IMG/VR virus record: IMGVR_UViG_3300045988_145861
Span: 1 to 39,456 of that record
From: a virus
Length of the DNA stretch: 39,456 bases
Reading direction: 5' to 3' (one strand)
Below the pieces are notes generated by a model. The model saw only the letters and a program-made list of their open reading frames with translations, did not search any database and was not told where the DNA came from. The stretch's first letter is position 1. Each line of letters begins with the position of its first letter. Positions 1 through 39,456 of this stretch are shown piece by piece. The position numbers were made by a program, and so were the translations under genes.

Positions 1-55
1 GCCCACGCTTCGGGCACGTCCGTCACCGTGCAGGTGAGGGTCGCCTGGTCGGCGA
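1..55. repeat. Terminal direct repeat, copy 1 (identical to 39402-39456)
   Basis: Read directly: gcccacgcttcgggcacgtccgtcaccgtgcaggtgagggtcgcctggtcggcga occurs at both window ends. This implies a circular or circularly permuted molecule with 39,401 unique bp. Confidence 0.95.
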
Positions 56-344
56 CGCACTCACCAATCGTGGTGCCGTCGTCCAGCGTGAACGGAAAGT
101 TGGCGCGCCAGGCAAACCCGCCGTCGACGCTGCCAACGGTGAGGGTAGAGCCAACGGTCAGGTGCGGGGTCTGCCAGGTGCCCTCGACGGTGACCTCACT
201 CGAGGTCTGGCGTGAGGCTGACGTGGCCTTGGTGACCTGCGCGCTGATCGGCGCGGGGGTGTCCGCGAGCGCGGGGGCCGCGGCGGCTGCGACGGCGAGG
301 CCAATGGTGAGGCCGAGGCCGGCGAGCGTGTACTTGGTGTTCAT
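1..344 (-). CDS. Cell-wall-anchored adhesin, N-terminal segment. The gene wraps through the window ends and continues at 39401.
   Basis: ATG at 344 follows AGGAA. My minus-strand translation begins MNTKYTLAGLGLTIGLAVAAAAAPALADTPAP (a signal peptide). It stays open to nt 1 and is in frame with track ORF 38471..39427 through the overlap. Total length is 1275 nt, 424 aa. Confidence 0.8.
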   Translation of the reverse strand, partial: MNTKYTLAGLGLTIGLAVAAAAAPALADTPAPISAQVTKATSASRQTSSEVTVEGTWQTPHLTVGSTLTVGSVDGGFAWRANFPFTLDDGTTIGECVADQATLTCTVTDVPEAW

Positions 345-357
345 CGTTACGGGGTTC

Positions 358-498
358 CTATTCGTTGTCGGGTGTGGTGAGGGCGTTGATGCTGGCGTCC
401 TGGATGAGGCGGCGGACGTGCGGGTCGGTGCAGGGGCGGGAGGGGTGGCGGATCCACCAGGTGGTGGAGTGCAGCCACTCAACTGTGGTGAGGCTCAT
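358..498 (-). CDS. Hypothetical small protein (46 aa)
   Basis: Internal ATG of track ORF 358..654, with GGAGG 7 nt upstream. ATGA stop/start overlap with the upstream gene. Confidence 0.5.
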   Translation of the reverse strand: MSLTTVEWLHSTTWWIRHPSRPCTDPHVRRLIQDASINALTTPDNE

Positions 499-1054: not shown

Positions 1055-1318
1055 TTACGCGGCCCGTTTGGCTGCGCGTGTGGCGGCTGCCTTGCGGGCT
1101 GCCTGACTGCGGTTGCTGCGGGCGGTGATCCTGCCTTCGGCGGGGGCTGCTGCGTGCCGGGCTTGGTAGGCCGCGAGCGCGTCGACGGGGATGCGCCAGC
1201 CTGCGCGGCCTTTCTCGTTCCACGCGGCGATCTGGCCGTCGCGGATGCGGCGGCGGACGGCGGCGGGGGAGAGCCTGAGCATCTCGGCGGCCTCGGCGAG
1301 GGTGAGGATCTGGGTCAC
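1055..1318 (-). CDS. Excisionase-family (MerR-like) helix-turn-helix DNA-binding protein
   Basis: LTLAEAAEMLRLSPAAVRRRIRDGQIAAW...WRIPVDALAAY fits the excisionase-family HTH pattern. 4-nt overlap with the upstream cro-like gene. Confidence 0.7.
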   Translation of the reverse strand: MTQILTLAEAAEMLRLSPAAVRRRIRDGQIAAWNEKGRAGWRIPVDALAAYQARHAAAPAEGRITARSNRSQAARKAAATRAAKRAA

Positions 1319-1542
1319 GCGGCCTCCTCGATGCGGGTTTCGACGTCTGCCATAAAGCGGCTCGGGGTCTCGTACCCGAGGGCGGCGCTGATGGCGACGA
1401 TCTCGCCTAGCGTGAAGTCGCTCTCACCTGAGAGTTTGCGCGCAAGCGTTGTCCGTGAAAGCCCAACCTGCTTGGCGAACGCGCGGATTGAGACCCCGGC
1501 GCTGTTGATCCGCGCTTTCAGCTCAGTTTGAACTGCGTTCAA
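1315..1542 (-). CDS. Cro-like XRE-family HTH regulator, first gene of the leftward early operon (75 aa)
   Basis: HTH IRAFAKQVGLSRTTLARKLSGESDFTLGEIVAISAALG. TTG start at 1542 lies 6 nt after GGAGGA. The track ORF extends to 1596 with no RBS. Confidence 0.7.
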   Translation of the reverse strand: MNAVQTELKARINSAGVSIRAFAKQVGLSRTTLARKLSGESDFTLGEIVAISAALGYETPSRFMADVETRIEEAA

Positions 1543-1564
1543 TGGTGTTCCTCCTTTCCGGGGT

Positions 1565-1580
1565 GGCCCATTTGTGGGCC
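1565..1580. promoter_or_regulatory. Operator O1: perfect dyad GGCCCA-TTTG-TGGGCC
   Basis: Read directly, in the divergent intergenic region between the two HTH genes. Confidence 0.55.
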
Positions 1581-1591
1581 GCATGTGAGTA

Positions 1592-1621
1592 ACCATAGTG
1601 GCCCAGAAGTGGGTCAGTCAA
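1592..1621 (-). promoter_or_regulatory. Candidate leftward early promoter TTGACT (1621-1616), 18-nt spacer, TATGGT (1597-1592)
   Basis: Sigma-70-like hexamers on the minus strand. The spacer is exactly filled by dyad O2. Confidence 0.5.
1600..1615. promoter_or_regulatory. Operator O2: GGCCCA-GAAG-TGGGTC (one mismatch)
   Basis: Read directly. Occupies the spacer of the candidate leftward promoter. Confidence 0.5.
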
Positions 1622-1662
1622 GTCGAAACGCGAAAATTAATGACGCAATGTCCCTACCAGGT

Positions 1663-1678
1663 GGCCCGTTTCTGGTCC
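1663..1678. promoter_or_regulatory. Weak operator-like dyad O3: GGCCCG-TTTC-TGGTCC (two mismatches)
   Basis: Read directly. Abuts the CATAAT hexamer upstream of the repressor ATG. Confidence 0.3.
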
Positions 1679-1691
1679 ATAATTGGGCGCA
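1678..1691 (+). promoter_or_regulatory. CATAAT -10 hexamer ending 7 nt before ATG 1691, suggesting a leaderless repressor mRNA
   Basis: No Shine-Dalgarno precedes ATG 1691. The hexamer-to-ATG spacing fits a leaderless start, which is common in Actinomycetota. The -35 is poor. Confidence 0.35.
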
Positions 1692-1960
1692 TGAGTGTCA
1701 CAGCATTTGAGCCGCATGACTTCGAGCAGGCCGTCGCCGCCGCCCTACGGGCCGAAATGAGCCGTCAAGGCATATCTCAGCGCACACTTTCAACTCGGTT
1801 GGGAGTTTCTCGGTCTCGTCTGATGCGAGTTCTTGCGGAGGAGGGGCAAACAGCCCCTATGACTGTCACGGTGCTAGAGGCCTTGTGTCGTGCTCTCGGC
1901 GTATCGATGACGCGGATACTCACTGACGCTGAAACCATGCTCGCAACCGGGCGGGCATAA
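1691..1960 (+). CDS. CI-like XRE-family HTH repressor (89 aa from ATG 1691; track ORF starts at 1598)
   Basis: HTH LRAEMSRQGISQRTLSTRLGVSRSRLMRVL. Divergent from the cro-like gene, co-oriented with int, and followed by a hairpin. Confidence 0.65.
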   Translation: MSVTAFEPHDFEQAVAAALRAEMSRQGISQRTLSTRLGVSRSRLMRVLAEEGQTAPMTVTVLEALCRALGVSMTRILTDAETMLATGRA

Positions 1961-2812: not shown

Positions 2813-2838
2813 GGGGGGTTCGATTCCCCCCATCTCCA
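2813..2838 (+). other. attP core candidate: 3' T-arm plus acceptor strand of a tRNA (GGGGG-TTCGATT-CCCCC-CATCTCC-A)
   Basis: Canonical T-stem and TTCGATT loop followed by a 7-nt acceptor 3' strand. I could not fold a D-arm or anticodon arm upstream, so this is a fragment. It lies 140 nt upstream of int and is flanked by AT-richer DNA. Confidence 0.6.
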
Positions 2839-2884
2839 CAACAAAAACCGCATGATTCTGCGGTAAAATGAGGGTGCGAAAACA

Positions 2885-2975: not shown

Positions 2976-4139
2976 ATGGCATCTGTCAAGGCAGTGAAGC
3001 ACCGTGACGGCACCGTCGTCTACAGGGTCCGCTACCGCGCGGGCGGGCGCAACCCAGTCGTAGAGACGTTCTATGATGCCGCGAGCGCCAAGCGATTCGC
3101 CGACCTCGTCGACCGCGTCGGCGGGGCCGCCGCCCGCGAGATGCGCAGCCTCGACGACCTCGCAGCCGCCGATACGCCGACTGTCGCCGCGGCGTGCGAA
3201 CACCACCTCGAGGCCCTGGCCGCGTCGGCAACGCCCGGCACGATCAGCAGATACAGGCAGATCGTGCGGGACCGGATCGAGCCGAGCCTCGGACTCATCC
3301 CTGTGGACATGCTGACGAGGCATGCGGTCACGAAGTGGGTCGCCGAAATGAGGCGTACGCCCGTCGCTCGCGGTGCCACCGCTGGCCGCCCCCCGTCAGC
3401 AAAGACGATCCGCAACGCCCAAGCCCTCCTATCCGCTGCCCTGCAACGCCTTGTTAACGAGGACGTCATTGCCCGCAACGTCGCCAAGGGCGTCCCCCTA
3501 CCCAAGGACGCGACCGTGCGCGAAATGCGCTTCCTCACCCCCGACGAGTACACGCGCCTCCACGCGCAGATCCCCGCCGACTACCAGCCCTTCGTCGCCG
3601 CAATGTACGGCCTCGGCCTGCGCTTCGGCGAGGCAACCGCCCTCACAGTCGCCGACGTCGACCTCGACGTCGCACAACCCGTCGTCCGCGTCAGCAAAGC
3701 CTGGAAAATGGGCGAAAACGGCACCCCCTACCTCGGGGCCCCGAAAACCAAACGCGCACGCCGCACGGTCACCATCCCCGCGCCCCTCATCCCTGAACTG
3801 CGCGCCGCGCTCGCGGGCAAGGCCTCGGATGAGCTGGTATTCACGGCGCGCAGGGGCGGGCCGATCACGTCGGGGCCATTCCACGCCCACATCTGGCAGC
3901 CTGCGTGTGATGCGGCGGGCCTATCGCCGCGACCGCGCGTGCATGACCTGCGCCATTCGCACGCGTCGGCACTGATCGCGGCGGGCGTCCCCCTGCCCGT
4001 TGTGCAGCGCCGCATGGGGCACGAATCAATCCAGACGACCGTCGATGTATACGGGCACCTCGCGCCTGATGCTTACGCAGGCGCGGCTGAGGCCATGAGC
4101 GTGGCCATGGGCGGGGTGACCCCTCAACTCGGCATGTGA
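2976..4139 (+). CDS. int: Tyrosine recombinase / phage integrase
   Basis: C-terminal catalytic signature HDLRHSHASALIAAGVPLPVVQRRMGHESIQTTVDVYGHL, with an upstream GLRFGEATAL box. Adjacent to the tRNA-like attP. Confidence 0.93.
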   Translation: MASVKAVKHRDGTVVYRVRYRAGGRNPVVETFYDAASAKRFADLVDRVGGAAAREMRSLDDLAAADTPTVAAACEHHLEALAASATPGTISRYRQIVRDRIEPSLGLIPVDMLTRHAVTKWVAEMRRTPVARGATAGRPPSAKTIRNAQALLSAALQRLVNEDVIARNVAKGVPLPKDATVREMRFLTPDEYTRLHAQIPADYQPFVAAMYGLGLRFGEATALTVADVDLDVAQPVVRVSKAWKMGENGTPYLGAPKTKRARRTVTIPAPLIPELRAALAGKASDELVFTARRGGPITSGPFHAHIWQPACDAAGLSPRPRVHDLRHSHASALIAAGVPLPVVQRRMGHESIQTTVDVYGHLAPDAYAGAAEAMSVAMGGVTPQLGM

Positions 4140-10040: not shown

Positions 10041-10048
10041 GCTTCTTC

Positions 10049-10858
10049 CTATCGATTAGAGGTGGCGACTAGGGCTGCACTGATGGCCCACCCCCACACG
10101 CCCACCGTGGAGGATTGGCCGTTTCTCACGAGGATGCTGATCGTGTCGCCGAGGCCGAGACGCACGATCCCGTACGCAGTCGGCGTTGCATACTGACGCT
10201 CAGGCGCGTATGCGTCAGCGCGCGGGTGCGTGTCCCACACGCTCGACGGCGCGGCAGCTCCTGAGCGATGCACGCTCACCCCGCAGGTGATCGGGCCGTC
10301 CCAGCCCGTCGACCACGCGTGGACGCGCGCGCTCACCGCATACAGGCCCGGAGCCTCGACAGCGACCTCGTACGCTTTGGCCGTCCCGTCTTGCGTGAAG
10401 CCACTGCACGCGGCGAGCTCGCCGCCCTCGAAGAGCGGGAGCCGCGCCCAGTACGTGGGCGGCACGTCGTACCCGGCGGACCGGATACCCGAGTCCCAGC
10501 CGAGCACAGGCGCACTCGTATCAACGAGCGCGTTGTATTTGCCCGTGAGATCCTGCAGAGCCCTGCCGGTCTCACCGACCGCGACGGTCGGCGTCCCGCG
10601 CGGCGCGCGCACAGCAGGAGCGTGCGCCATGGTCGCCGCCCCATCAGACCCACGCGAGACCCGAACGCGCGCTCCAATGTAGGTAAGGCCAGCAGCAGAC
10701 TGTGTGATCACAGTCTGCCCATCAGGCGAACCGTCGAGGTGTACCTCGACGAGGCCGTTAGCCTCGTCGTAGATCGAGGTGACCGTTCCCGCCATGACGT
10801 CCATGGCCGTTGCCCGCCGTGGAGGTGAAACGTCGAGCCACGAGGATAGAGCATCCAT
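10049..10858 (-). CDS. Minor tail protein (269 aa)
   Basis: Track ORF within the distal tail module. Called by position only. Confidence 0.5.
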   Translation of the reverse strand: MDALSSWLDVSPPRRATAMDVMAGTVTSIYDEANGLVEVHLDGSPDGQTVITQSAAGLTYIGARVRVSRGSDGAATMAHAPAVRAPRGTPTVAVGETGRALQDLTGKYNALVDTSAPVLGWDSGIRSAGYDVPPTYWARLPLFEGGELAACSGFTQDGTAKAYEVAVEAPGLYAVSARVHAWSTGWDGPITCGVSVHRSGAAAPSSVWDTHPRADAYAPERQYATPTAYGIVRLGLGDTISILVRNGQSSTVGVWGWAISAALVATSNR

Positions 10859-10863
10859 TACGC

Positions 10864-11958
10864 TTACCTGCCGTCCTGGATTTCGATGTCGACGCGCATG
10901 ACCTGCGCCGGGTCATCGAGGGTCATGGAGTAGCCCGTCACCCGGCCTCGCAGGGCCTCGCTGCTGTTCAGGTGGGTGACGCGCACGTCGACAACGTCAC
11001 CGAGCTCTAGGCGCGGATCCGTGACAATCTGCAGGGCGCGCGCCTCCGACGCCGCGAGCGAGGCCGCCATGTACGTTTCAGCCGCCTCACGGATCTGATC
11101 CTCAGACTCCGCGATATCCATTGTGTTACTGGATGTCACGACACCGTACGTATCCGCCCGATACCTGGGATCGGTCCAATTGCTGACGACCACCGCCCAC
11201 TTGATCTCTTCCTTTTCCCCGCCTTCGTCGCGCTCAGACCCGTCGGTCTTGGGGGATCCAGTGACCATCCAGCGGTTGGGCTGGCGCGCGCGGCTGCGGC
11301 GGTTAGCGGAGATCAGCAGATCGCGGCCTGTGTAGGTCGCGACCGCCGCATCCGTAGGCGTCGGCGGCGTGACGTGGAGAATCCCGTCGGGGGTGACGCG
11401 GTAGACCATCCCGAAGGCCTCAACGAGTTTTTGGATAGCGTCGAGACGCCCGGTGCCCCACTCGAAAAGACGATGGATGCTGAAATTACGGGCGACAGCG
11501 GTCTGGACACCTCCGTCGCTCGGCTCGCCCGCGAGTCGCTGCACCTCAGACGCGAGAGTGGCCCCCTCGGGTGGGGACGACGGCCAAAGCATCTCGTTTT
11601 TTTCGAGGCGCTGCGTCAAATCCAACGCCTCGACGGCCACGTGGCCGTCATCAGACTCTTCCCAGCTCTCGATCTGGTAGACGCCCACCTGGACGTCCCA
11701 CTCGCCGCGGGGCGACGCGATGCGCGCCGCAATGTGGACGCGCTGGCCGAAGCACGCCAACGGATCGTCCCACGAGGCTGGCACGTACTCATGTGGCGCT
11801 GAAAACGTCACGCGCGTCTGCACCGCGCGATCAGCGGACGCCTCAATCTGTACGTCCCACGCGGGGACGATGACTGACGATCCCCTGAACTCTGCCGTAA
11901 CCACTGGCGTGATGGTGACTGACCCCGCCAGTACTGGCACATCGGGTCCGGGCCTCAC
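10864..11958 (-). CDS. Minor tail protein in the Tal / baseplate-hub position (364 aa)
   Basis: The GTG at 11958 overlaps the upstream stop (GTGA). Second gene after the tape measure. The track ORF is extended to 12114. Confidence 0.55.
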   Translation of the reverse strand: MRPGPDVPVLAGSVTITPVVTAEFRGSSVIVPAWDVQIEASADRAVQTRVTFSAPHEYVPASWDDPLACFGQRVHIAARIASPRGEWDVQVGVYQIESWEESDDGHVAVEALDLTQRLEKNEMLWPSSPPEGATLASEVQRLAGEPSDGGVQTAVARNFSIHRLFEWGTGRLDAIQKLVEAFGMVYRVTPDGILHVTPPTPTDAAVATYTGRDLLISANRRSRARQPNRWMVTGSPKTDGSERDEGGEKEEIKWAVVVSNWTDPRYRADTYGVVTSSNTMDIAESEDQIREAAETYMAASLAASEARALQIVTDPRLELGDVVDVRVTHLNSSEALRGRVTGYSMTLDDPAQVMRVDIEIQDGR

Positions 11959-31301: not shown

Positions 31302-31491
31302 TCTCGGCGGGCTCGCGGTAGGCGATGACGAGGCGGCGGCCTTCGTGAAGGGGGGTCTGCCGGTCTACGGTCATGTCGTCGATGACTGCGCCTGGCTTGA
31401 GTTGTGCGAGTAGGGCGGTCACGACGGAGGGTGTGACGCCGTCGGCGCGGTCGAACGTGACCGTGAAATGGCCTCGGATGTAGTGCTTCAT
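31291..31491 (-). CDS. Small-protein family member P5 (66 aa)
   Basis: Track ORF with a 4-nt overlap onto the RusA-like gene. Confidence 0.55.
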   Translation of the reverse strand: MKHYIRGHFTVTFDRADGVTPSVVTALLAQLKPGAVIDDMTVDRQTPLHEGRRLVIAYREPAENGN

Positions 31492-31874
31492 TTGGTCTCC
31501 TGTTCCTGAATTATGAGGGTCACCGTGTGGATGCCCTTGGGCGATTTTTGCGGGTCTCGCGCGAAGGCAACGAGGGGTAGGTGCGTGTGGTCGTCGTCGT
31601 CCCAGACGCGGGCGTCCACGAGGCCGTCAATGATGGCCTTCACGGTTGGTTCGGCGTTGGTGGGGTCGGCGCGCCCCTTGGTGGGGTAGCCGATCATGGT
31701 TGTGACGATGCTGGGGCCGAGGCGACTGCCTGCCAGGCCGTGGATGCGGGCCTCGCTGGCTGCGTAGGCTCGGAGCATCCGTGTGCGTCGCATCCGCGTT
31801 GACCAGTGGAGTCTCTGGTTAGCGGTGAGCCACAGGGCTTTGTGGACGCCGATTGTGAGCGTGTGACGGCTCAT
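31488..31874 (-). CDS. rusA: RusA-like Holliday junction resolvase (128 aa)
   Basis: GRADPTNAEPTVKAIIDGLVDARVWDDDDH matches the RusA DPDN...D.L...DD pattern. ATG 31874 overlaps the upstream stop. Confidence 0.7.
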   Translation of the reverse strand: MSRHTLTIGVHKALWLTANQRLHWSTRMRRTRMLRAYAASEARIHGLAGSRLGPSIVTTMIGYPTKGRADPTNAEPTVKAIIDGLVDARVWDDDDHTHLPLVAFARDPQKSPKGIHTVTLIIQEQETK

Positions 31875-32719
31875 TTGTCGTCCATATGCGTTAGGGCGAC
31901 TGCGGCGGCGTGGGCGGCCTGTAGGGGCACGGTGCCCGAGTAGAGCAGGCCCATGCGCTGGTCGTGGGTGAGGCGCATGTCCGGCGTGCTCACGTAGCCG
32001 ATAGGTAGCCCCATCATCCACTCGACGAAGCCGAGGGACAGGCGGCCCGGGGCGGGGCTGGTGGGCAACGTGTACAGGGGATACGGGTACCGTTCGCCGG
32101 TGACTTTCTCCCAGTGTTCGAGTGCCCGGCTGTCGGCCTTTCCTTCCATGTCGGCGCGCGCCCACCTGTCTGCCTCGCTGTCGAGGTAGGTGCAGTAAGC
32201 ACTCGGGCTGGTCCATAGGCTGCCGGTCCATGGGGCAGCGTCCAGGTACGCTTCGTTCACGCGTGGCGCGGGGCAGTCGTTGCGGACTCCTATCGCGTAC
32301 GAGCGTAGGCGGAGGTGGGGTGCGCCGACATCGTTCGAGCACATGCGAAGCCATAACGAGCGGTATCCGTGGCTGTCGAGGTATTCGCAGATGGGCACGG
32401 CTTCGTCGTTGGGGAGCTGCGCCTCGACGATGACGAGCGGCGGTTTGTAGCCTTCGTCGATAAGCGGCGCGCCCGTGGTCTGCCAGGTCGCATACCTGTT
32501 GATAGTGAGCACGTCCACCATCGGCGGCGGCGCGTCGATGACGGTGTGCGCGCCCGCATGGGGGTGGTGGTAGCGCATCGCCGTGCGTCCGGGGCAGTCG
32601 GCCGCCTGGCCGGGGTGTGCGTGCCAGGCGAGCGTCGCGCCGCCCAGCGCGGCGGCCACACCGATAGGGAGGCCACCGTAACCTGGGTCAATAGCGCCGA
32701 TGGTCAGTTCCGTAGTCAT
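31871..32719 (-). CDS. C5-cytosine-methyltransferase-like paralogue lacking the catalytic motifs (probable pseudoenzyme)
   Basis: Aligns by eye with 33712..34950. Motif I is GYGGL in both. Motif IV GSPCQ is replaced by LTINRY, ENV by EAQ, and GAPHQRAR by GAPHLRLR. The C-terminal FVEWMMGLPIGYV and SGTVPLQ are retained. Confidence 0.65.
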   Translation of the reverse strand: MTTELTIGAIDPGYGGLPIGVAAALGGATLAWHAHPGQAADCPGRTAMRYHHPHAGAHTVIDAPPPMVDVLTINRYATWQTTGAPLIDEGYKPPLVIVEAQLPNDEAVPICEYLDSHGYRSLWLRMCSNDVGAPHLRLRSYAIGVRNDCPAPRVNEAYLDAAPWTGSLWTSPSAYCTYLDSEADRWARADMEGKADSRALEHWEKVTGERYPYPLYTLPTSPAPGRLSLGFVEWMMGLPIGYVSTPDMRLTHDQRMGLLYSGTVPLQAAHAAAVALTHMDDK

Positions 32720-32994
32720 CGGTCGCTCCTGTTCTTCGGTGCGTCGTCTGCGGTGACCTCGGGGACAACCTTGATGTGCATAGGGCCGCGCTCATCAGGC
32801 GAGAAAACAACCAGGCTTCCAGCGTGCGCGAACCACCTGTACCCGCAGCACCCCGTCAGCCAATAGCCGGGATTGTTAACTTCGACGGCAAGCTCGCTGC
32901 CCTCATTGCGGACAGTCACGCCGAGGCCCCACGCTCTCAGGGCTTTCGTGTCGGCCTCGGGGTCGCCCGTGAGCCTGTAGGCATAGAAGTTCAC
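32716..32994 (-). CDS. Hypothetical protein (92 aa)
   Basis: The GTG at 32994 overlaps the upstream stop (GTGA). Confidence 0.45.
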   Translation of the reverse strand: MNFYAYRLTGDPEADTKALRAWGLGVTVRNEGSELAVEVNNPGYWLTGCCGYRWFAHAGSLVVFSPDERGPMHIKVVPEVTADDAPKNRSDR

Positions 32995-33299
32995 GCGAGT
33001 TCCTCCTCGGTGATGGCCTGGCCGGGGTGCGTGTACCAGGCGCGGAAGTCGCCCGCCGTGCGATTCGAGACGCGCAGCCTGCCAGGCGTGGACACGAGCA
33101 TGTCGCCTTCTATGGCCCACACGGTGGGGCCGGGCCCGGTCAGGTAGATCAAGCCGTCGTCGGTGCATGCGACCACCTTGCGGGCGATCTTCGCAATCGC
33201 AGTCGCGTTGTCGCGGGTCAGGCGCACCGCGCGCACCATGACGCGCTCCTGGTAGGTGCGCACGCCGTCAAGCCCGGCGAACGGGTCAAACGTAGTCAT
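32991..33299 (-). CDS. Hypothetical protein (102 aa)
   Basis: ATG 33299 follows GAGGAGGAAACAGG and overlaps the upstream stop (ATGA). Confidence 0.5.
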   Translation of the reverse strand: MTTFDPFAGLDGVRTYQERVMVRAVRLTRDNATAIAKIARKVVACTDDGLIYLTGPGPTVWAIEGDMLVSTPGRLRVSNRTAGDFRAWYTHPGQAITEEELA

Positions 33300-33715
33300 C
33301 CTGTTTCCTCCTCTGTGAGAAGTGAATCTTGTGTGTGGGGGGACCTGTCCCACGTCCGGTAGTAGGGGTTGGCGTATTCGGCGAGGCCGCGCGGGTTCGC
33401 GATCTCTAGGAGAACGTCTGCGTGGCATGGCTGGCCCAGTGGACACCAGCACGCGAGGTCGCGACCCCAGAGGACGCGGCGGGCAGAGTCCTCTACGTGG
33501 CGCCCCTCCCTCGTTGTCTCGAGCCACTCACGGAATCGCTCGACTGCCTCCTCGGGCGTGGCGACAACCATGGGATCGCCAGCATCGAGTTCGCGTCGTG
33601 TTCGGGCGACTCGGTAGGGGTTCCCGTACAGGCTTCCCCTGCCCACGTACTTGGTGTGCGCGGGCATACGCCACCCGCGTGTCCGCTGGCGTTGGACACG
33701 GATCGGCACCCTCAT
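33296..33715 (-). CDS. DUF4326-family protein
   Basis: YVGRGSLYGNPY...GRDLACWCPLGQPCHADVLLEIAN matches the DUF4326 signature (GRGS.WGNP...L.CWC....CHAD.L). Confidence 0.7.
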   Translation of the reverse strand: MRVPIRVQRQRTRGWRMPAHTKYVGRGSLYGNPYRVARTRRELDAGDPMVVATPEEAVERFREWLETTREGRHVEDSARRVLWGRDLACWCPLGQPCHADVLLEIANPRGLAEYANPYYRTWDRSPHTQDSLLTEEETG

Positions 33716-34950
33716 GAGCGTTCCTCCGTCCGCGCCGCTCGGATGAGCGTCCCGACCGCGAGCGCGGTTTGTTGTGGGACGACTCCGTTTCCGAGGAGCC
33801 GTAGTTGGTGCTCACGTGGCAGGTCGAGGTCGGTGACGTGGCCGTCTGGTAGGCCCATGAGCCATTCGACGAACCGTGTGGAGAGCTGGGGTTTGCCGCC
33901 TGGGCGGCGTGATGGTGTCGAAGGGGGTGGGGCTGCCCGGCCTGTGATCTGTTCCCATCGGGCGATCACTTTCGCGTAGGGTCCGAAGTGGGTGAGGTCG
34001 CTGCTGGTTGCTACCTCGTGCAGGTTCGGCCCGTATCCGGTGGATGACCTGGACGCGTTCACTGCCTGCGGTGTCGGGAGGAGTCCCCCTGTTGGGAGCA
34101 GGTCGTTTTCGACGATGATGGCCAGGTCCGTGACGCGCTCCCTGACTGGCTTTTTGCGCAGGTGCTCGGACGGGCTGTTTCCCGAGGGCTGGGCGACAGG
34201 TGTGGGGAGGAGCTGCACTGCCTGCGTGAGGCTGTGGCCTGTGCCCTCTGGGTGGCGGCCAGCTTTGTGGTCCGACGCGGTTGGCGTCGGGATCAGAGGG
34301 CAGTCACTTGGTCTTGTAGGCTCACGCTGTGGCCGCCTGCCCGCCGCTTTTCGGGGTGCTGGGGGCCTCCGCATGTCCCAAGGTTGGCCGTGGGGGTGGC
34401 CAATAAGGAAGAGGCGGGCGCGCTGGTGTGGTGCGCCGGCGTCGGAAGCTCGTATAACTGCCCAGTGACAGTCATACCCGAGGCCGGCCAGGTCTCCTGC
34501 CACACGGCCTGCTGCCCTGAGAGCAGGTCGAGTTGCTTGGTCTCCCAGCATTGTCGGCTCGGATTCCAACGGGCTATAGGCTCTTGCACTGAGGGCTCCT
34601 TGCACGTTTTCCCACACCACGAGGCGGGGTCTGATGGTTTCGATTGCGGCGGCCATGGATTCCCAGAGGCCCGAGCGTGTGCCGGTGGCCATGCCTGCGC
34701 GTTTGCCTGCGAGGCTGAGGTCTTGGCATGGGCTGCCGCCGCAGATGATGTCGACGGGTTCCACGTCTGCCCAGTCGATCTGGGTGATGTCCCCGAGGTT
34801 CGGGGTGGTGGGCCACCTGACGGCAGCGAGCTTGCAGGGACCGGGTTCAACGTCGCTGGTCCAGGCGACCCGCGCGTCGGGGTCTATGGCCATGGCGACC
34901 CCCATATCCAGGCCGCCGTACCCGGTGAACAGACTCCCGATGGTGGTCAT
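33712..34950 (-). CDS. DNA (cytosine-5)-methyltransferase
   Basis: Motif I LFTGYGGLDMG, motif IV GGSPCQDLSLAGKR, motif VI VVWENVQG, motif VIII GAPHQRARLFLIG, motifs IX/X FVEWLMGLPDGHV and LLGNGVVPQ. Confidence 0.92.
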   Translation of the reverse strand: MTTIGSLFTGYGGLDMGVAMAIDPDARVAWTSDVEPGPCKLAAVRWPTTPNLGDITQIDWADVEPVDIICGGSPCQDLSLAGKRAGMATGTRSGLWESMAAAIETIRPRLVVWENVQGALSARAYSPLESEPTMLGDQATRPALRAAGRVAGDLAGLGYDCHWAVIRASDAGAPHQRARLFLIGHPHGQPWDMRRPPAPRKAAGRRPQREPTRPSDCPLIPTPTASDHKAGRHPEGTGHSLTQAVQLLPTPVAQPSGNSPSEHLRKKPVRERVTDLAIIVENDLLPTGGLLPTPQAVNASRSSTGYGPNLHEVATSSDLTHFGPYAKVIARWEQITGRAAPPPSTPSRRPGGKPQLSTRFVEWLMGLPDGHVTDLDLPREHQLRLLGNGVVPQQTALAVGTLIRAARTEERS

Positions 34951-35183
34951 TGTTCCGCCAGCTCCTCGACTGAGATACCGACCTCCCCGGGCGCGGCGGT
35001 GGTGCTCGTGTAGCCGACAGCGAGTTTGGCGCTTTCGTTGAAGTATCCGGCTGGCCTGATCTGTATGTTGTCGATCATGGAGCCTTCGGGCAGGCGGAGC
35101 ATGATCGCGCCGAGGAGCGCGGAGGGGATACCCTTTCGCGGGTCGTAGGTGATGGTGAATACATCGCGGCGTTGCGTGCTCAT
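34947..35183 (-). CDS. Small-protein family member P6 (78 aa), detached copy
   Basis: VFTITYDPRKGIPSALLGAIMLRLPEGSMIDNIQI...KLAVGY follows the same pattern as P1-P5. Confidence 0.55.
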   Translation of the reverse strand: MSTQRRDVFTITYDPRKGIPSALLGAIMLRLPEGSMIDNIQIRPAGYFNESAKLAVGYTSTTAAPGEVGISVEELAEQ

Positions 35184-35347
35184 TGTGCGGTCCTTTCGAT
35201 GTCGCTCAAGTGCAGTATGAGGTGGTCAACATGAGTGGCTGCTTCGTCGATGGCGAGGGTGATACCCAGCTTGTTGGCGATGCCTGCGGCTTCCCTGATC
35301 TGCTCTCTCGCTTCGAAGAGGCAAGACAGTACGTCATCCACATTCAT
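35180..35347 (-). CDS. Hypothetical small protein (55 aa), below the track length cutoff
   Basis: My translation: MNVDDVLSCLFEAREQIREAAGIANKLGITLAIDEAATHVDHLILHLSDIERTAQ. GAGGAGGA RBS and ATGA overlaps at both ends. Confidence 0.5.
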   Translation of the reverse strand: MNVDDVLSCLFEAREQIREAAGIANKLGITLAIDEAATHVDHLILHLSDIERTAQ

Positions 35348-35493
35348 GCGAAGTCCTCCTCACTAACGCTGGCGGCGGCCATTTGTGCTGCGAGCTGGGT
35401 GACCGCGTCCTGTAGTGCCGCCATGGCGATTGCTTCACGCAGGTGGGCGGCGGCCTCCGCGTAGGGGCTCTTGTGCGGCCATTCGGGGATCAT
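35344..35493 (-). CDS. Hypothetical small protein (49 aa), below the track length cutoff
   Basis: My translation: MIPEWPHKSPYAEAAAHLREAIAMAALQDAVTQLAAQMAAASVSEEDFA. The ATG overlaps the methyltransferase stop (ATGA). Confidence 0.45.
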   Translation of the reverse strand: MIPEWPHKSPYAEAAAHLREAIAMAALQDAVTQLAAQMAAASVSEEDFA

Positions 35494-36519
35494 GCTGCGT
35501 CATCTCCCATGCCGAACAGGTTGAGGGGCGCTTCGATGCCCTGCGCGAAACGTGCTTTGATGAGCGGGATGTACCTGTCGTCGAGTTCGCAGCCGACCGC
35601 GCGCACGTTCTCCATGGCCGCCGCCTGCAGGGTTGTGCCCGACCCGGCGAACGGTTCGAGGATCAGCGCACCGGGCCGCACCACGAGACGGATCAGGTAT
35701 CGCATGAGCTCGAGGGGCTTCACGGTGACGTGCTGTACCCCCCCCCACGATGGGGCGCTCGCGCTTAGGGGCCTTCGGTTGGTATCTGAATACCGGCCAC
35801 ACGTGGTCGGGGGCGCCCTGCTGCACGGCGGCGGCCATGGCCTGCTCGCCCATGAGCAGGTTCGGCGGGTACGAGCCGCCCGCTGCGTCCATGCCTGCGC
35901 GAATGTTCATCGCGCCGGTGCCGTGCTCACGGACGTTGTCGACCAGGCGGCCCTCGAGAGGGCGTCGCGCGACGACGATGGGCTCCCACGCTGGTTTAAG
36001 GCCGACGCCCCAGCCTTCCCAGGTTTTGGCTTCGTCGGTGACAGGTTCGCCGGTGGCGTGGAGTTTGTGAGATGACATGTGCGTCGCGGTGGCCTCGTCT
36101 GCCCATTCGCGCACGTCGCGGCCTTCGCGTTGATCCAGGACGCCCGTGGCGCGGTCGAACGCTGATGAGAGGTCCATTCCGGCGGGTTTGCCGTCGGCTC
36201 GTATCCAGGCCATAGCGTCGCGGATCTCGAAGCCGGCGTCCTCGAGGGCGCTCGTGAGCCGGTGGTAGGTTCGGGGCGCGCTGAACGCGAGCAGGTAGCC
36301 GCCGGGCTTGATGACGCGCAGCGCCTCCTCTCCCCATGACTGCGCCCACGCCTGGAACCCCTGCGGGGTGGCCGTGTCCCACTTCTCGCCCGCGAAAATG
36401 ATCCCGTAGGGCGGGTCAGTGATGACCGCGTCGAAATGATCGGCGGGGAGCCTGCGCATGATGTCCCGGCAATCCCCCTGGTGCAGGGTGATGCCGTCGT
36501 ATAGGTCGATTCCGTTCAC
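35490..36519 (-). CDS. Beta-class (DPPY first, FxGxG last) N6-adenine/N4-cytosine DNA methyltransferase, frame-interrupted at a G9 tract (35738-35746)
   Basis: GTG 36519 overlaps the RecT stop (GTGA). N-terminal part: ITDPPYGI motif IV. After the G9 run the true continuation HVTVKPLELMRYLIRLVVRPGALILEPFAGSGTT (motif I) is in the other frame (track ORF 35490..35723). 1030 nt is one nt too many. Confidence 0.8.
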
Positions 36520-37523
36520 GCTGCGCCCCCGTTCGGGTCGGTGTCGTCGCCGTAGTCGAAGATCGGGGCCTGCTGGTCGTCGATGATCTCGACCTCGGCC
36601 TCGGGCGCCGGTTCGGGCGCCGGCTGGGTGCGACCGCTGTTGTAGATAGCGAGCAGCTCGGCGTGGATTATGGAGGCCTGTTCGTCGTTCAGGGCGGTCA
36701 CGGAGATGAGCTGGCCGAGGCACCGCTTGCACAGCGCATCGTAGGCTTCCTGGGTGAAGCTGAGGATGTCGAGGCCCTTTGCGACGCTGGCCTGCGCGGG
36801 CGTGAGCGGCTTTGCAGGCTGGGTTAGCTCATGTGGTGCCGCCGCGGGCGTCGCGGCCGGCGTCGGCTTCGCCGCCGGGGCAGGCTTGGCGGGTGCTTCG
36901 GCGACGATCTCCGCTTCGATGACCTCACCCGTCTCCGTCATGGTGGCCCCGAAGTCCTCGGGGCTGTAGATCATGCCCATGAGGGCTTCGGATGCGCCTT
37001 GGCGCGCGACCTCGGTGATTGCACGGGTCCTGAGCATCTGGGTCGGGTACTGCGACCAGGGCCCCTTCTGGCCCCACAGGCCCGCCTTCACGGCCTTGTC
37101 CTTGTCCCAGGTCACCTCGAATTTGAACGTCTTGTCGTCCGCGCGGATCAGCGTCGCAGTCACGGACTCGGGGCTGTTTTCGGCGATGCGCAGGGTGTGG
37201 CCGGCGCGGCGGATCACGGCGGCCATGAGGTCGGATGAGAGTGTCGCCCGCCCGTTGATGACGGCGATAGAGGCCAGCGCTTGGAGCGGCTCGAGGCCGA
37301 GGGCTGCGCCGGTTTCGGCGGCGACAAATGCGTTCGCAGGGTTGCCCCTGTATGCGGTGGGGATGATCGTTGAGGGGGCGATCCGCGCGATGTAGGCGGC
37401 GCGTTCCTGCAGGCCGGCGGTGATGTAGGAGAATCCGGGGGTTGGCGTGGGGGCCGGTACTGGGGTGGTTTTCGCGGCGGCCTTGCCGCGAGGCTTAGCG
37501 ACTTCGGTGGAAGCCATGAGCAT
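36516..37523 (-). CDS. recT: RecT-family single-strand annealing recombinase
   Basis: ...AALGLEPLQALASIAVINGRATLSSDLMAAVIRRAGH...WGQKGPWSQYPTQMLRTRAITEVAR is a RecT-like core, with an Ala/Pro-rich acidic tail. Confidence 0.8.
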   Translation of the reverse strand: MLMASTEVAKPRGKAAAKTTPVPAPTPTPGFSYITAGLQERAAYIARIAPSTIIPTAYRGNPANAFVAAETGAALGLEPLQALASIAVINGRATLSSDLMAAVIRRAGHTLRIAENSPESVTATLIRADDKTFKFEVTWDKDKAVKAGLWGQKGPWSQYPTQMLRTRAITEVARQGASEALMGMIYSPEDFGATMTETGEVIEAEIVAEAPAKPAPAAKPTPAATPAAAPHELTQPAKPLTPAQASVAKGLDILSFTQEAYDALCKRCLGQLISVTALNDEQASIIHAELLAIYNSGRTQPAPEPAPEAEVEIIDDQQAPIFDYGDDTDPNGGAA

Positions 37524-37550
37524 GATTCCTTTCAGTAGGAGATCGGGGTG

Positions 37551-37889
37551 TCAGTCCTGGCCCTTTCGGCGGCGCCTGGTTGCCGACCGGCGCTTCGCCT
37601 CGTTCTGGTCCAAGGAGAGCCACACGAGGTAGCCGCCTTGTCCGTCCGAGCGGGAGTCCACGACCCAGAACGTGCCGTGACGGTTAAGGCTGTGAGCGTA
37701 GGCGCGGATCGTGTCCACGCGGCGGCGGGGCCAGCCGCCTGTCTCGCTGTCCTCGTTCGGTAGGAGAAACGTTTCGCCTGGGTGCGTCTGGATGTGGCGA
37801 CGCTCGGCGGGCGTCGTGATGCGCAGGAACAGGGGGGCGTGGGAGCCGATCTGCGTCTTGCCGGGGATCGGGGCTTTACGGATCGTCAT
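37551..37889 (-). CDS. Hypothetical protein (112 aa), basic C-terminus
   Basis: Track ORF, ATGA-coupled to the upstream gene. Confidence 0.5.
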   Translation of the reverse strand: MTIRKAPIPGKTQIGSHAPLFLRITTPAERRHIQTHPGETFLLPNEDSETGGWPRRRVDTIRAYAHSLNRHGTFWVVDSRSDGQGGYLVWLSLDQNEAKRRSATRRRRKGQD

Positions 37890-38101
37890 TCTGCTTCGCC
37901 TCCCTGCTGTTCTTCGCGGCCCATGACGGCGAGGGCGAGTGCGATACCGCAGGCGGTGGGGATGAGGGCGAGGACGCCGGCGGCGAGGTTTCGCTCGTAG
38001 ACGGCCAGAAGCATCGCGAGTGCGCCGTTGGTTACGGATGCGGCGGCGGCCAGGAGGTAGATGGTTGCGGCGGTCTTGGTGTAGACGGGCACGTATCGCA
38101 T
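37886..38101 (-). CDS. Small two-TM membrane protein (71 aa from ATG 38101)
   Basis: AAGGA RBS before ATG 38101. Hydrophobic segments AATIYLLAAAASVTNGALAMLLAV and VLALIPTACGIALALAVM. Confidence 0.5.
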   Translation of the reverse strand: MRYVPVYTKTAATIYLLAAAASVTNGALAMLLAVYERNLAAGVLALIPTACGIALALAVMGREEQQGGEAE

Positions 38102-38131
38102 GGTGGTTTTGTCCTTTGGGTGATTAGGGGG

Positions 38132-38166
38132 TGGGGGCCGCCGGGCTGCCAGCGGGGCGGCCCCCA
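38132..38166 (-). terminator. GC-rich hairpin (11-bp stem TGGGGGCCGCC / GGCGGCCCCCA) between early genes, possible attenuator
   Basis: Read directly. No U-tail. Confidence 0.3.
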
Positions 38167-38177
38167 CACGGGCGGGG

Positions 38178-38474
38178 TTAGGCTACGAGCGGCTGTTCGG
38201 GCAACGTCGCGGCGAGCTTCCTAGCGACAGCTTCGCGCATGTCGGCGGCGCCGATTGCGGCGTCCAGGTCGTCGATGATCTTCGTCATCCTGTCGTGCTC
38301 CTTGCTGAGCACTGCCTTTGCGACGCGGATAGCTGCGGCGGTGTGGAGTCGCTCGACTTCTTCGTGGTCGATCTCGGCGGCGAGGCTTTCCTCCTTGAGG
38401 AAGGCGCGCAGCCACGTCAGGTCGTCGAGCTCAATAGTGAGTGTCACCGGGTTTACGAGGTGCTTCGTGGTCAT
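38178..38474 (-). CDS. Hypothetical protein (98 aa)
   Basis: Track ORF. The ATG overlaps the adhesin stop (ATGA). Confidence 0.5.
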   Translation of the reverse strand: MTTKHLVNPVTLTIELDDLTWLRAFLKEESLAAEIDHEEVERLHTAAAIRVAKAVLSKEHDRMTKIIDDLDAAIGAADMREAVARKLAATLPEQPLVA

Positions 38475-39401
38475 CGTCCGTGGCCTCCCAGGTAACGGCG
38501 GTTGATGACGTACCCACCGGCGGTGAGGAGGACACCCAGGGCGAAAGACCCGAGCGCGACCTTGATGCCGTCGAGGGTTGCGCCGGTCTTAGCGAGCTGA
38601 GTCGCCGGGGCCGGAGCGGGCTGTGCGTCTGCTTTCGGCTCGGGCTTCGGGGTCGCGTGCGTGGGCACGGGCACCGGCTCGGTGGTCACGCGCGGCTCCG
38701 GGGTGGGGTCAGGAGTCGGCGTGGACTGGGGTTCGTCCGAGGGCTTCGGTGCGGGCGTCGCAGGCGTGGACGGGGTGGTGGGCGTCGGCTCCGGCGTGGG
38801 CTCCGTGGACGGCTCGGGGGCCGGGGCGGGCGTGGGCTTCACGGTGCCGTCACCGTCGGTGCCGCCGCCGGCCTTCACTGTCGCGGTCGCCTCCAGGCTC
38901 GCGCCGTTGATCGTCGCCTTGTTGGTGTACGTCGTCACGCCCTCGACGGGCTGCGTCGCGTCAGGGTAGGTCACGCACGTGAGAGCCCCGGTCGGGGGCG
39001 TGAACACGAGGGTGTGCTTCGTGTCGTCGAGCTTGCCGTCAGTCCACGACGTGGTCGCGGGGTCCCAGGTCGGGCCGGTCGAGCATTTCACCGCCGTGTG
39101 CAGTGTGTTGGTTTCGTCGATGATCGTGTACTCGACGCTGGGGTCCGCCTTCCACTGGATGCCCCACCCGACCGAGCCGTCGCGGTTGGTCCACCCGTAC
39201 TTCACGGTTTCGGGCCGTGCGTACTCGTAGTGAGCGGGGCCGGAGCAGTCGTTGCTGCAGGTGCCCGTGCCCTCACGGTCGCCCCACACGAGGGTGCGGA
39301 CGACCTGCCCGTTCAGGGTGATCGAGGTCGATTCAGTTCCAACCGCCTTGTCGACGAGGCTGGCGCGGGCATGGAACGTGCCCGTGACGTTCTCCTTCGC
39401 G
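38471..39401 (-). CDS. Cell-wall-anchored adhesin, C-terminal segment: Ig-like domains, Pro/Thr-rich stalk, LAKTG sorting signal
   Basis: C-terminus ...ATQLAKTGATLDGIKVALGSFALGVLLTAGGYVINRRYLGGHGR is an LAXTG motif, a hydrophobic helix and a basic tail. The track Met at 39427 is internal; the true start is at 344 across the junction. Confidence 0.8.
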
Positions 39402-39456
39402 GCCCACGCTTCGGGCACGTCCGTCACCGTGCAGGTGAGGGTCGCCTGGTCGGCGA
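39402..39456. repeat. Terminal direct repeat, copy 2 (identical to 1-55)
   Basis: Same 55-mer as at the left end. Confidence 0.95.

Follow-up and report, generated by a model that had tools for sequence, protein, structure and literature searches.

The IMG/VR virus record IMGVR_UViG_3300045988_145861 is a DNA of 39,456 nucleotides, here termed the window and analyzed over its full length, and represents a temperate phage of oral Actinomyces/Schaalia bacteria. A gene that runs across the two ends of the record encodes a protein of 424 amino acids that carries every sequence hallmark of a sortase substrate. On balance, we favor a reading in which the infected or induced cell secretes this protein and displays it on its surface rather than building it into the virion, and in which the protein is probably adhesive and is made from the early lytic transcript. 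For brevity we refer to the gene as the adhesin gene.

The gene crosses the junction of a circular contig

Positions 1-55 of the window are an exact match to 39402-39456, forming a terminal direct repeat of 55 bp. Because the ends are identical over this length, the window is a phage contig that closes into a circle, with the 55 bp as an overlap left by the assembly, and the break point lies inside the adhesin gene. Removal of one copy of the repeat generates an intact open reading frame (ORF) of 1275 nt on the minus strand, running from the ATG at 344-342, through base 56 into 39456 across the junction, and terminating at the TGA at 38473-38471. A preliminary description of the DNA, made from the sequence alone, had proposed that joining the ends would give a protein of 424 aa, and this is exactly what is obtained. 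The joined translation is identical, residue for residue, to the database protein P0001, which gene calling recovered from three independent contigs, the longest of 39.5 kb, and therefore the join is not an artefact. ORF calling on the linear window gives only a 318-aa fragment with a GTG start at 38471-39427. Since the break point falls inside the gene, ORF finders that assume a linear contig will miss or truncate it.

Architecture and sorting signal

The protein begins with a predicted cleavable Sec signal peptide, MNTKYTLAGLGLTIGLAVAAAAAPALA, followed by D. By eye this has a basic n-region with an MNTK start, a hydrophobic core (Kyte-Doolittle hydropathy >1.7) and an AxA cleavage site, and an equivalent peptide is present in all the aligned relatives. 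The globular region (residues 28-303) is rich in Thr, Gly and Val, and contains six Cys residues at positions 96, 105, 163, 167, 221 and 257. It is followed by a stalk of 80 aa (29 Pro, 16 Thr, 10 Ala and 7 Glu), the pentapeptide LAKTG, a hydrophobic segment at residues 389-415 (Kyte-Doolittle hydropathy up to 1.9), and the tail NRRYLGGHGR. The signal peptide, the LPXTG-type pentapeptide near the C-terminus, and the hydrophobic segment with a positively charged tail that are looked for in sortase-anchored proteins are thus all present. The layout had been read in the same way in the preliminary description, where the stalk was put at about 75 aa; its hydrophobic helix corresponds to residues 392-418 in the structural model described below, and the basic tail to the RR sequence.

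Across an alignment of 32 relatives (49-100% identity), none of the six Cys residues varies, nor do many residues of the core, and the Cys residues remain invariant down to 30% identity. This is what would be expected of an extracytoplasmic, oxidatively folded actinobacterial protein. L384, T387 and G388 are likewise invariant in the 32 relatives, whereas the flanking stalk is free in both length and sequence. We have taken a census of the motif in 240 members of the family. LAKTG is found in 210, LPVTG in 14, LARTG in eight and LA(H/N/Q)TG in three, so that LAxTG or LPxTG is kept in 235 of the 240, and two members are truncated. Positions that vary among the members include residues 52, 129, 168 and 209. 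Comparison of the sequences therefore provides strong evidence that LAKTG acts as a sorting signal, because the motif is conserved within hypervariable surroundings and is replaced only by other sortase motifs.

LAXTG had been assigned to the class E housekeeping sortases, and the literature agrees. Class E sortases recognize LAXTG and occur in Actinomyces (PMC8225981). In A. oris the housekeeping sortase, SrtA, belongs to class E, and LAXTG is found on many of the surface proteins of this species (PMC11131087). Schaalia odontolytica has sortase-anchored fimbriae and adhesins (bioRxiv 10.64898/2026.09.08.750141). The phage encodes no sortase that we could find, as a six-frame search of the window for the TLxTC motif matched only a frame that is ridden with stops.

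The globular part resembles the ligand-binding region of Cna-type adhesins

Structure prediction of the joined protein had been suggested as a check on its nature. An AlphaFold2 model of the whole protein, calculated with a 32-sequence alignment, comprises two all-beta domains at residues 34-155 and 181-289, with predicted local distance difference test (pLDDT) scores mostly of 75-90, followed by a disordered stalk and a C-terminal helix. When this model was compared with the PDB using Foldseek, the 13 best matches were all two-domain ligand-binding A regions of Gram-positive adhesins, with E values of 4.6e-8 to 4.7e-6. They include Cnm (8jl8, E 4.6e-8), Cna (2f6a, E 9.4e-8), Srr2, SdrC, ClfB, FnBPA, SdrD, UafA, Srr1 and RspB. 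The alignments extend over about 310 columns, with template modeling (TM) scores of 0.22-0.32 and root-mean-square deviations (rmsd) of 12-15 Å. Low TM scores are expected here, because a third of the query is disordered and the angle between the domains differs.

Since the TM scores of the whole model were too low to carry a claim about the fold, domain 2 was modeled alone (residues 172-303), giving a pLDDT of 89 and a predicted TM score of 0.80. Its best Foldseek matches in the PDB are the N2 domains of Cna (1amx, 2f68 and 2f6a) and Cnm (7lgr), together with RspB, with TM scores of 0.51-0.56 and rmsd values of 4.3-5 Å. For the Cna and Cnm N2 domains (1amx, 2f68, 7lgr and 2f6a) the TM scores are 0.53-0.56, while the N3 domains of SdrG, ClfA and SdrE rank after the Cna-type domains with TM scores of about 0.41-0.43. 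As modeled, domain 2 is therefore Cna-N2-like (CnaA type), and closer to this than to the N3 domains of SdrG and ClfA. An Ig-like fold for domain 1 is supported by the alignment of the whole model and by matches to the Pfam family Big_8 in homologues (below). On this basis the two adjacent IgG-like (DEv-IgG/CnaA) subdomains that distinguish an MSCRAMM are both predicted. The two beta-rich regions had originally been likened to N2 and N3 Ig folds; the models bear out two tandem Ig-like domains with MSCRAMM matches, but place the second closer to the N2 domain of Cna than to an N3 domain. In a Foldseek search of the viral structures in BFVD, no significant match had a TM score above 0.21, and the modeled adhesin appears unlike known viral structural folds.

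Within domain 2, K182, D210, N275 and N280 are invariant down to 30% identity. In the domain-2 model the Lys lies in the first strand, the Asp in the third and the Asn in the penultimate strand, positions which we take to match those of the isopeptide triad of CnaA-type domains (Lys in the first strand, an Asp, and Asn in the penultimate strand). From conservation and strand position, the K182-D210-N275/N280 arrangement could form a CnaA-type intramolecular isopeptide bond. Domain 2 is followed by a conserved extension, GGT(D/N)G(D/N)G..K, modeled by AlphaFold2 with low confidence, which from its conservation and position could be a candidate latch. The loop between the domains in the distant relatives has the sequence GDxDGDGxCDxDC, which resembles a thrombospondin-type-3-like calcium-binding motif with a disulfide. 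In the window protein this loop is degenerate (GDREGTGTCSNDC, residues 155-167, at about 39245-39283 on the minus strand), and the confidence of the AlphaFold2 model is low at residues 159-176.

Relationship to chromosomal surface proteins of Actinomyces

In family searches with the window protein, the best Pfam match was DUF7926 (E 0.005), together with a low-complexity match to PARP. NCBIfam gave only a low-complexity match to PspA, and searches of PHROGs and PADLOC gave no matches. An exhaustive HMMER search of 1.84 billion cluster representatives returned just 38 relatives at the level of 50% identity, and the family is therefore narrow. Three large proteins (P0260, P0270 and P0278) considered as repeat-containing relatives were rejected, as Pfam shows them to be ankyrin, TPR/CHAT or unrelated proteins that matched through biased stretches; a fourth large protein (P0272) was set aside along with these without a Pfam scan.

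The full-length distant relatives share the layout of the window protein, and end in LAKTG, LPVTG, LAHTG or LARTG. One of these, P0251, which matches the window protein with an E value of 3.9e-24, passes the threshold of Pfam Big_8 (PF17961) with 26.8 bits against a cut-off of 22.9 bits, and the match lies within domain 1. Big_8 is matched by three of 14 relatives examined. PF17961 is precomputed for close relatives of P0251 and for most of the cellular relatives, one of which is listed in UniRef as 'SDR-like Ig domain-containing protein'. The gathering threshold of Big_8 is not reached by the window protein, which we would assign to that family only by transitive homology. It gave no match to Pfam Collagen_bind (PF05737), for which one distant member of the 14 relatives had no better than E 0.11.

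Chromosomal homologues are found in syntenic positions in A. massiliensis, A. gerencseriae, A. israelii and a metagenome-assembled genome (MAG) of Actinomyces, in the gene order rpoA-rplQ-[gene]-ROK kinase-truA. These proteins are about 30% identical to the window protein and terminate in LA(H/R)TG, which likewise points to the use of a host class E sortase. From these relationships we place the phage gene in a family of Actinomyces surface proteins. Its origin was presumably a capture from a host, followed by divergence to the present identity of about 30%. The chromosomal copies (at 9761-11140 in locus L006, and at about 9980-10800 in L007, L008 and L009) occupy a housekeeping locus, beside the rpoA ribosomal-protein cluster, that is unusual for a surface-protein gene.

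Carriers and distribution

A tblastn search of GenBank phages identified homologues in two records. Actinomyces phage xhp1 (MG941013) encodes XHP1_00038, with 70% identity, and Caudovirus D_HF4_2 (OR148985), which was obtained from human saliva, encodes a homologue of 54% identity. Both proteins have LAKTG, both are annotated as 'hypothetical protein', and both genes are located in an early/replication block. Clustering of metagenomic proteins at 90% identity gives more than 1,500 clusters for the type found in the window and about 1,360 for the D_HF4_2 type. The carrier contigs are mostly about 39 kb in length, while some are of 135-669 kb, and the backbones of the phages concerned are of at least three kinds (xhp1-like, window-like and D_HF4_2-like). 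One entry in nr has been named automatically as 'collagen adhesion protein [Caudoviricetes sp.]'.

P0036, which is a close relative, is found on a free contig of 37.6 kb and also, integrated beside cellular genes, on a contig of 135.9 kb. The tyrosine integrase gene of the window, taken with this close relative integrated on a 135-kb contig, indicates that the phage is temperate. The genome records that carry the gene are Actinomycetaceae or Actinomyces MAGs, plus one labeled Xylanimonas cellulosilytica. The latter (L004, NZ_JVKM01000061.1, strain 352_XCEL) has an xhp1-type copy of 69% identity followed by a homologue of the 98-aa ORF that lies downstream of the adhesin gene in the window, on a 90.8-kb contig. 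Either the host range extends beyond the Actinomycetaceae or the record is mislabeled.

Genomic context and expression

The features of the gene and its surroundings are collected in Table 1. On the minus strand the order is the cro-like gene, the excisionase (xis)-like gene, three small ORFs, the adhesin gene, three further small ORFs, the recT gene, and then DNA methyltransferase genes and DUF4326. The gene had been placed in an early block downstream of a cro-like gene, and the family searches support this, with a divergent cI/cro pair and the Xis-like gene upstream and RecT downstream. The same position is kept in xhp1, D_HF4_2 and 10 metagenomic relatives. The close packing described earlier can also be read directly from the DNA. 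The upstream ORF stops at 358-360, leaving a gap of 13 nt (345-357) before the ATG at 344, and the TCAT at 38471-38474 is ATGA on the minus strand, in which the stop codon of the adhesin gene overlaps the start of the 98-aa ORF. Given the 13-nt gap upstream, the 4-nt overlap downstream and the conserved position, the most economical reading is that the adhesin gene would be co-transcribed with the early genes.

Table 1. Features of the adhesin gene and its neighborhood in the window.
Feature	Position	Strand	Basis
Terminal overlap, circular-assembly junction, inside the gene	1..55	.	Identical to 39402-39456
5' part of adhesin coding sequence: ATG 344-342, codons 1-96, first base of codon 97	56..344	-	Continues into 39456 after removal of the overlap
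3' part of adhesin coding sequence: last two bases of codon 97, codons 98-424, TGA 38471-38473	38471..39456	-	Joined translation
Predicted signal peptide, residues 1-27, cleavage between ALA and D	264..344	-	Sequence inspection and hydropathy; equivalent peptide in all relatives
Predicted Ig-like domain 1 (residues 34-158), N-terminal half	56..245	-	Same domain, residues 34-158
Predicted Ig-like domain 1 (residues 34-158), C-terminal half, with invariant Cys96 and Cys105	39272..39456	-	AlphaFold2 strands 34-155, pLDDT 75-89; Big_8 matches in homologues
Predicted Ig-like domain 2, residues 177-292, Cna-N2-like; invariant Cys221/Cys257, K182, D210, N275/N280	38870..39217	-	AlphaFold2, Foldseek, invariant columns
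Pro/Thr-rich stalk, residues 304-383, predicted disordered, length-variable among relatives	38597..38836	-	
LAKTG sortase recognition pentapeptide, residues 384-388	38582..38596	-	Sequence and conservation census
Hydrophobic membrane segment and basic tail, residues 389-424 (…YVINRRYLGGHGR)	38474..38581	-	AlphaFold2 helix 392-418
Upstream 46-aa ORF, stop 358-360	361..498	-	
Excisionase-like HTH_17 gene	1055..1318	-	Family searches
cro-like helix-turn-helix (HTH) gene, first of early leftward block	1315..1596	-	Pfam HTH_3, PHROG repressor families
cI-like HTH repressor gene, divergent from cro-like gene	1598..1960	+	Family searches
Tyrosine integrase, beyond cI-like gene	2976..4139	+	Pfam Phage_integrase E 1e-23
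RecT-like recombinase, downstream in block	36516..37523	-	Family searches
Downstream 98-aa ORF, ATG overlapping adhesin stop (ATGA); no family match; co-deleted with adhesin in L012	38178..38474	-	

We scanned for promoters and terminators, using methods that are not tuned to high-GC Actinomycetota. Immediately upstream of the cro-like gene, at 1621..1592 (minus strand), is the sole sigma-70-like match in 1-2100, and no promoter-like or terminator-like site was found in 36000-39456. There is a GC-rich hairpin of 16 bp at 1003-1038, where 81 nt separate the excisionase-like gene from the early ORF that follows it. The hairpin has a T-tract only on the non-transcribed (plus) strand. It could be an attenuator or processing site lacking a U-tract that subdivides the early block.

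Elsewhere in the window, the DNA just upstream of the integrase gene (2814-2876, plus strand) gives sub-threshold Rfam matches to beta_tmRNA (E 1.8e-4) and tmRNA_permuted (E 5.6e-3), in the 3' part of the models. This suggests that attP might overlap the ssrA gene of the host at its 3' end. The end of the prophage in L029, an integrated relative, lies between host genes and the cro-like gene, as expected for an attP located between the int and cI-like genes. When the window and the prophage end of L029 were searched with ARAGORN, no tRNA was detected. The region 31488-36732 (minus strand) contains an N6/N4 methylase, a C5 cytosine methylase (33712-34950), a weakly C5-methylase-like ORF (31871-32719) and DUF4326, and these DNA-modification genes of the early block are probably an anti-restriction toolkit. 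The only similarity to known phages at the nucleotide level is a section of 430 bp matching the methyltransferase of the Propionibacterium phages PFR1 and PFR2.

The gene evolves as an exchangeable cassette

Related loci were fetched using RecT as an anchor, and ten window proteins were mapped onto them. In ten loci that cover the interval the adhesin occupies the same slot. Locus L012 (IMGVR_UViG_3300045988_150174) has DNA that is 95% identical to the window on both sides, with a clean deletion of about 1.5 kb that removes the adhesin and the 98-aa ORF. What is left, at 5296-5395 of L012, is the ATG and about 24 codons of the signal peptide (344 to 273, ending in AAAAAPTP and a stop), joined to window position 38162 just upstream of a 93-aa ORF. 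The adhesin is also absent from L025, where an 85-aa ORF leads directly to the 98-aa ORF. In L010 (3916-4737) and L011 (2073-2909) the backbone of cro, xis and RecT is 82-89% identical to that of the window, and the adhesin is of the D_HF4_2-like type with 58-61% identity. The comparison set for this allele replacement was L018, L022 and L028. Some type-B members (P0164, P0215 and others) have the whole C-terminal module exchanged for one with LPVTG.

Because the gene is deleted in L012 and missing from L025, and both alleles and C-terminal modules have been swapped, it is dispensable for propagation and is exchanged as a cassette in the manner of morons, even with no visible transcription signals of its own. 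The preliminary description had considered that the gene is not an isolated moron. This stands for its transcriptional embedding but not for its evolution, which is that of an accessory cassette (L012, L025, L010 and L011).

One protein from the search of cluster representatives, P0247 (396 aa), has a signal peptide (…AAGAALTIAALALPYG…) and tail (…LRLLEGPASKEEGEL) that are nearly identical to those of the xhp1 protein, with a globular region that is 39% identical to that of the window protein and an LAHTG end, a sign of modular shuffling of the binding head.

A proposed role, and alternatives

We infer a pathway of Sec export, oxidative folding, class E anchoring, display beyond the wall and ligand binding. 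The protein would be exported by Sec and its signal peptide cut after ALA27. Outside the membrane it would fold into two tandem Ig-like domains with three probable disulfide bonds and perhaps the Lys182-Asn275 isopeptide, with the C-terminal hydrophobic segment and the RR tail holding it in the membrane. The host housekeeping class E sortase would then cleave between the Thr and Gly of LAKTG and link the protein to peptidoglycan, and the Cna-like binding module would project past the wall on the 80-residue Pro/Thr stalk. Expression would be from the early lytic transcript, after infection or prophage induction; this seems the most likely because the ORF has no signals of its own and is tightly set within the cro-xis-…-RecT block. 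The outcome would be an altered stickiness of the producing cell, and then of its wall debris, toward kin cells, other oral bacteria or the host matrix, with aggregation and retention in biofilm the favored effects.

An adhesive role is favored because the closest folds are those of ligand-binding adhesins, the ancestral family comprises host surface proteins, and the xhp1 lysogen has a biofilm phenotype. Phage xhp1 enhances biofilm formation by S. odontolytica XH001, and the lysogen forms more biofilm than its cured derivative (PMC13578794, PMC8457075). XHP1_00038 is mentioned in neither of these two papers.

A number of points weigh against this reading. The published cause of the biofilm effect of xhp1 is the release of extracellular DNA (eDNA) by spontaneous induction (PMC8457075). 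The window protein lies above no curated family threshold in Pfam, NCBIfam, PHROGs or PADLOC, and a profile of 14 family sequences found only a spurious match to Hsp33 (E 1.2) when compared with all PDB sequences. The TM scores of the whole model are low (0.22-0.32), so that the two-domain likeness rests on the Foldseek E values and the model of domain 2. The adhesin gene is dispensable, and if it is expressed only in cells that are destined to lyse then the benefit of an adhesin would be indirect. Finally, the hairpin at 1003-1038 separates the xis-like gene from the rest of the block, and the promoter scan employed an E. coli-type consensus, so an internal actinobacterial promoter is possible and its absence from the scan is weak evidence.

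More speculatively, the protein could be a device for transmission in the lytic cycle, an extension of the proposed role that we think rather unlikely as it stands. An adhesin expressed early would make the infected or induced cell sticky, so that it is held in biofilm or clumped with kin, streptococci or TM7x, and progeny would be released where new hosts are densest. It has been published that Xhp1 is lytic during surface-associated growth and lysogenizes in planktonic culture. If true, the proposal would give a cause at the level of a protein both for the promotion of biofilm by Xhp1 and for this surface-lytic, planktonic-lysogenic behavior. In addition, the xhp1 lysogen S. odontolytica XH001 coaggregates with S. 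gordonii in an Hsa-dependent manner while ATCC 17929 does not, and the Schaalia partner varies between strains (PMC13249566). A phage-borne protein might contribute to this coaggregation, and we offer this as a lead only.

The early lytic transcript need not be the source of the protein. In lysogenic conversion of the SasX kind, an explanation to which we give a low probability, the adhesin would be made constitutively in lysogens from an unrecognized promoter within or upstream of the small ORFs at 361-973, and would improve colonization by the host bacterium. This would suit a gene that is accessory, moron-like and swapped between alleles, that derives from a family of host surface proteins, and that, in the integrated prophage, is only about 3 kb away from the cI end. 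The hairpin at 1003-1038 could split the gene from the cro-xis transcript, and there is a gap of 100 nt upstream of the adhesin in the called genes of the relative L029/L030. SasX and SesI provide the precedent (PMC5088179), and the greater biofilm of the xhp1 lysogen compared with the cured strain is also in accord. Yet the upstream gaps are short, being 13 nt in the window and 31 nt in xhp1, and no promoter-like site was found by a scan that is ill-suited to Actinomycetota. The gene also has the orientation and tight packing of genes that a cI-like repressor should silence.

A surface shield is a further reading, though quite an improbable one. Following the logic of T5 Llp, an Ig module anchored early to the wall would bind or cover the receptor or wall polymers, blocking superinfection and sparing progeny from adsorbing to debris. 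The position of the gene within the early operon and the dispensability of the protein for basic propagation are compatible with this, and an arms race would be consistent with the extensive divergence of the alleles, of which types of 55-70% identity occur in one backbone. Against it, the closest folds are ligand-binding adhesins, there is no match in PADLOC, there is no lipobox, unlike Llp and Ltp, and the chromosomal homologues occupy a housekeeping locus with no context of phage defense. Xhp1 particles bind the lysogen and the cured strain equally, and exclusion has been placed after adsorption (PMC13578794), although this would not be decisive if the gene is silent in lysogens.

Two remaining explanations can be dealt with briefly. 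The loss of the gene from L012 and L025 without obvious consequence might suggest a captured host surface-protein gene that is a mere passenger with no selected role for the phage, but this is very unlikely for a gene that has stayed intact across at least three backbones, in over 1,500 clusters defined at 90% identity, is truncated in only two of 240 members, and has invariant Cys residues, sorting signal and many core residues. Nor do we give appreciable credence to an Ig-like decoration or receptor-binding protein of the virion: Ig-like domains are common on virions and the weak BFVD matches include tail proteins, but those matches have TM scores of 0.21 or below, the structural genes are far from the early/recombination block that contains this gene, and a cleavable signal peptide with a sortase signal is incompatible with virion assembly in the cytoplasm.

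Two specific candidates were also rejected. A Gram-positive pilin is not supported, as there is no YPK motif in the globular part, the signal is LAKTG and not of the LPLTG type, the phage has no sortase gene, and pilins lie well below the adhesin A regions in the Foldseek ranking. A lipoprotein superinfection-exclusion factor such as T5 Llp or TP-J34 Ltp would require a lipobox, and there is none; the junction between ALA and D lacks a Cys, the first Cys is residue 96, and PADLOC gave no match.

Significance and comparison with known systems

In dental plaque, adhesion between partners depends largely on sortase-anchored adhesins. A gene of this kind is here carried by phages of a group that is very common in the human mouth, and exchange between phages extends to its alleles and even to its sorting signals. 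Were the protein anchored and adhesive, it would exemplify the use of an actinobacterial class E sortase by a phage, and would add a protein mechanism to phage-driven oral biofilm. Because the homologue XHP1_00038 sits in the tractable xhp1/XH001 system, the hypothesis is directly testable. The system of xhp1 and XH001 offers genetics and a cured strain, it has a published biofilm phenotype so far credited only to eDNA, and it takes part in a three-way interaction that includes the CPR epibiont TM7x. A full-text literature search, of incomplete coverage, found no description of the adhesin protein, and no earlier report of a phage exploiting an actinobacterial class E sortase was found in the literature searched. 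An adhesin or sortase substrate is mentioned neither in the 2026 PNAS paper on Xhp1 nor in the reviews consulted.

The true homologues among phages are XHP1_00038 and the D_HF4_2 protein (70% and 54% identity, respectively, in the globular region), which have the architecture, LAKTG and early-block position in common with the window protein. The backbone of D_HF4_2 differs, with primase/polymerase genes downstream and no integrase in the region shown. The chromosomal LA(H/R)TG proteins of Actinomyces share the two-domain layout, six Cys residues, Pro-rich stalk and LAxTG signal, and differ in their cellular housekeeping locus and in having a fuller GDxDGDGxCDxDC loop.

The best structural matches are the Cna-type MSCRAMMs, S. 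aureus Cna, S. mutans Cnm and E. rhusiopathiae RspB, with E values for the whole model of 4.6e-8 to about 9e-8. Like the phage protein they have a signal peptide, two Ig-like domains, a spacer, and a sortase signal with membrane segment and basic tail. There is no significant similarity in sequence, and the likeness is structural. The phage protein has a smaller domain 2 (about 115 aa compared with about 150 aa), three conserved Cys pairs, and a Pro/Thr stalk in place of the CnaB repeats. It has LAXTG (class E) where the Cna-type proteins have LPXTG (class A), it is phage-encoded, and collagen binding would be putative. The Sdr/Clf-type MSCRAMMs are related through Big_8, which the chromosomal homologues pass in domain 1, and SdrC, ClfB, FnBPA, SdrD and SdrG are among the structural matches. 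In contrast to these, the phage protein gives no match to SdrG_C_C (N3) and has no SD-repeat region, and latch or dock-lock-latch motifs were not identified.

SasX and SesI of the phiSPbeta-like staphylococcal prophages are also phage-borne surface proteins with a signal peptide and sortase signal, and SasX is reported to promote colonization, aggregation and biofilm (PMC5088179). We have compared SasX by description only, that is by its signal peptide, LPXTG motif and prophage location. SasX belongs to Firmicutes with a class A sortase, whereas the gene described here lies in the early lytic block of a temperate siphovirus-type Actinomycetaceae phage genome of about 39 kb. Prophage-borne sortase substrates are thus known already from SasX and SesI (PMC5088179). 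What is new is a lineage in phages of Actinomycetaceae with a class E LAXTG signal, its occurrence on the scale of the oral virome, its position in the early lytic block, and a tractable phage that carries a homologue annotated as 'hypothetical'.

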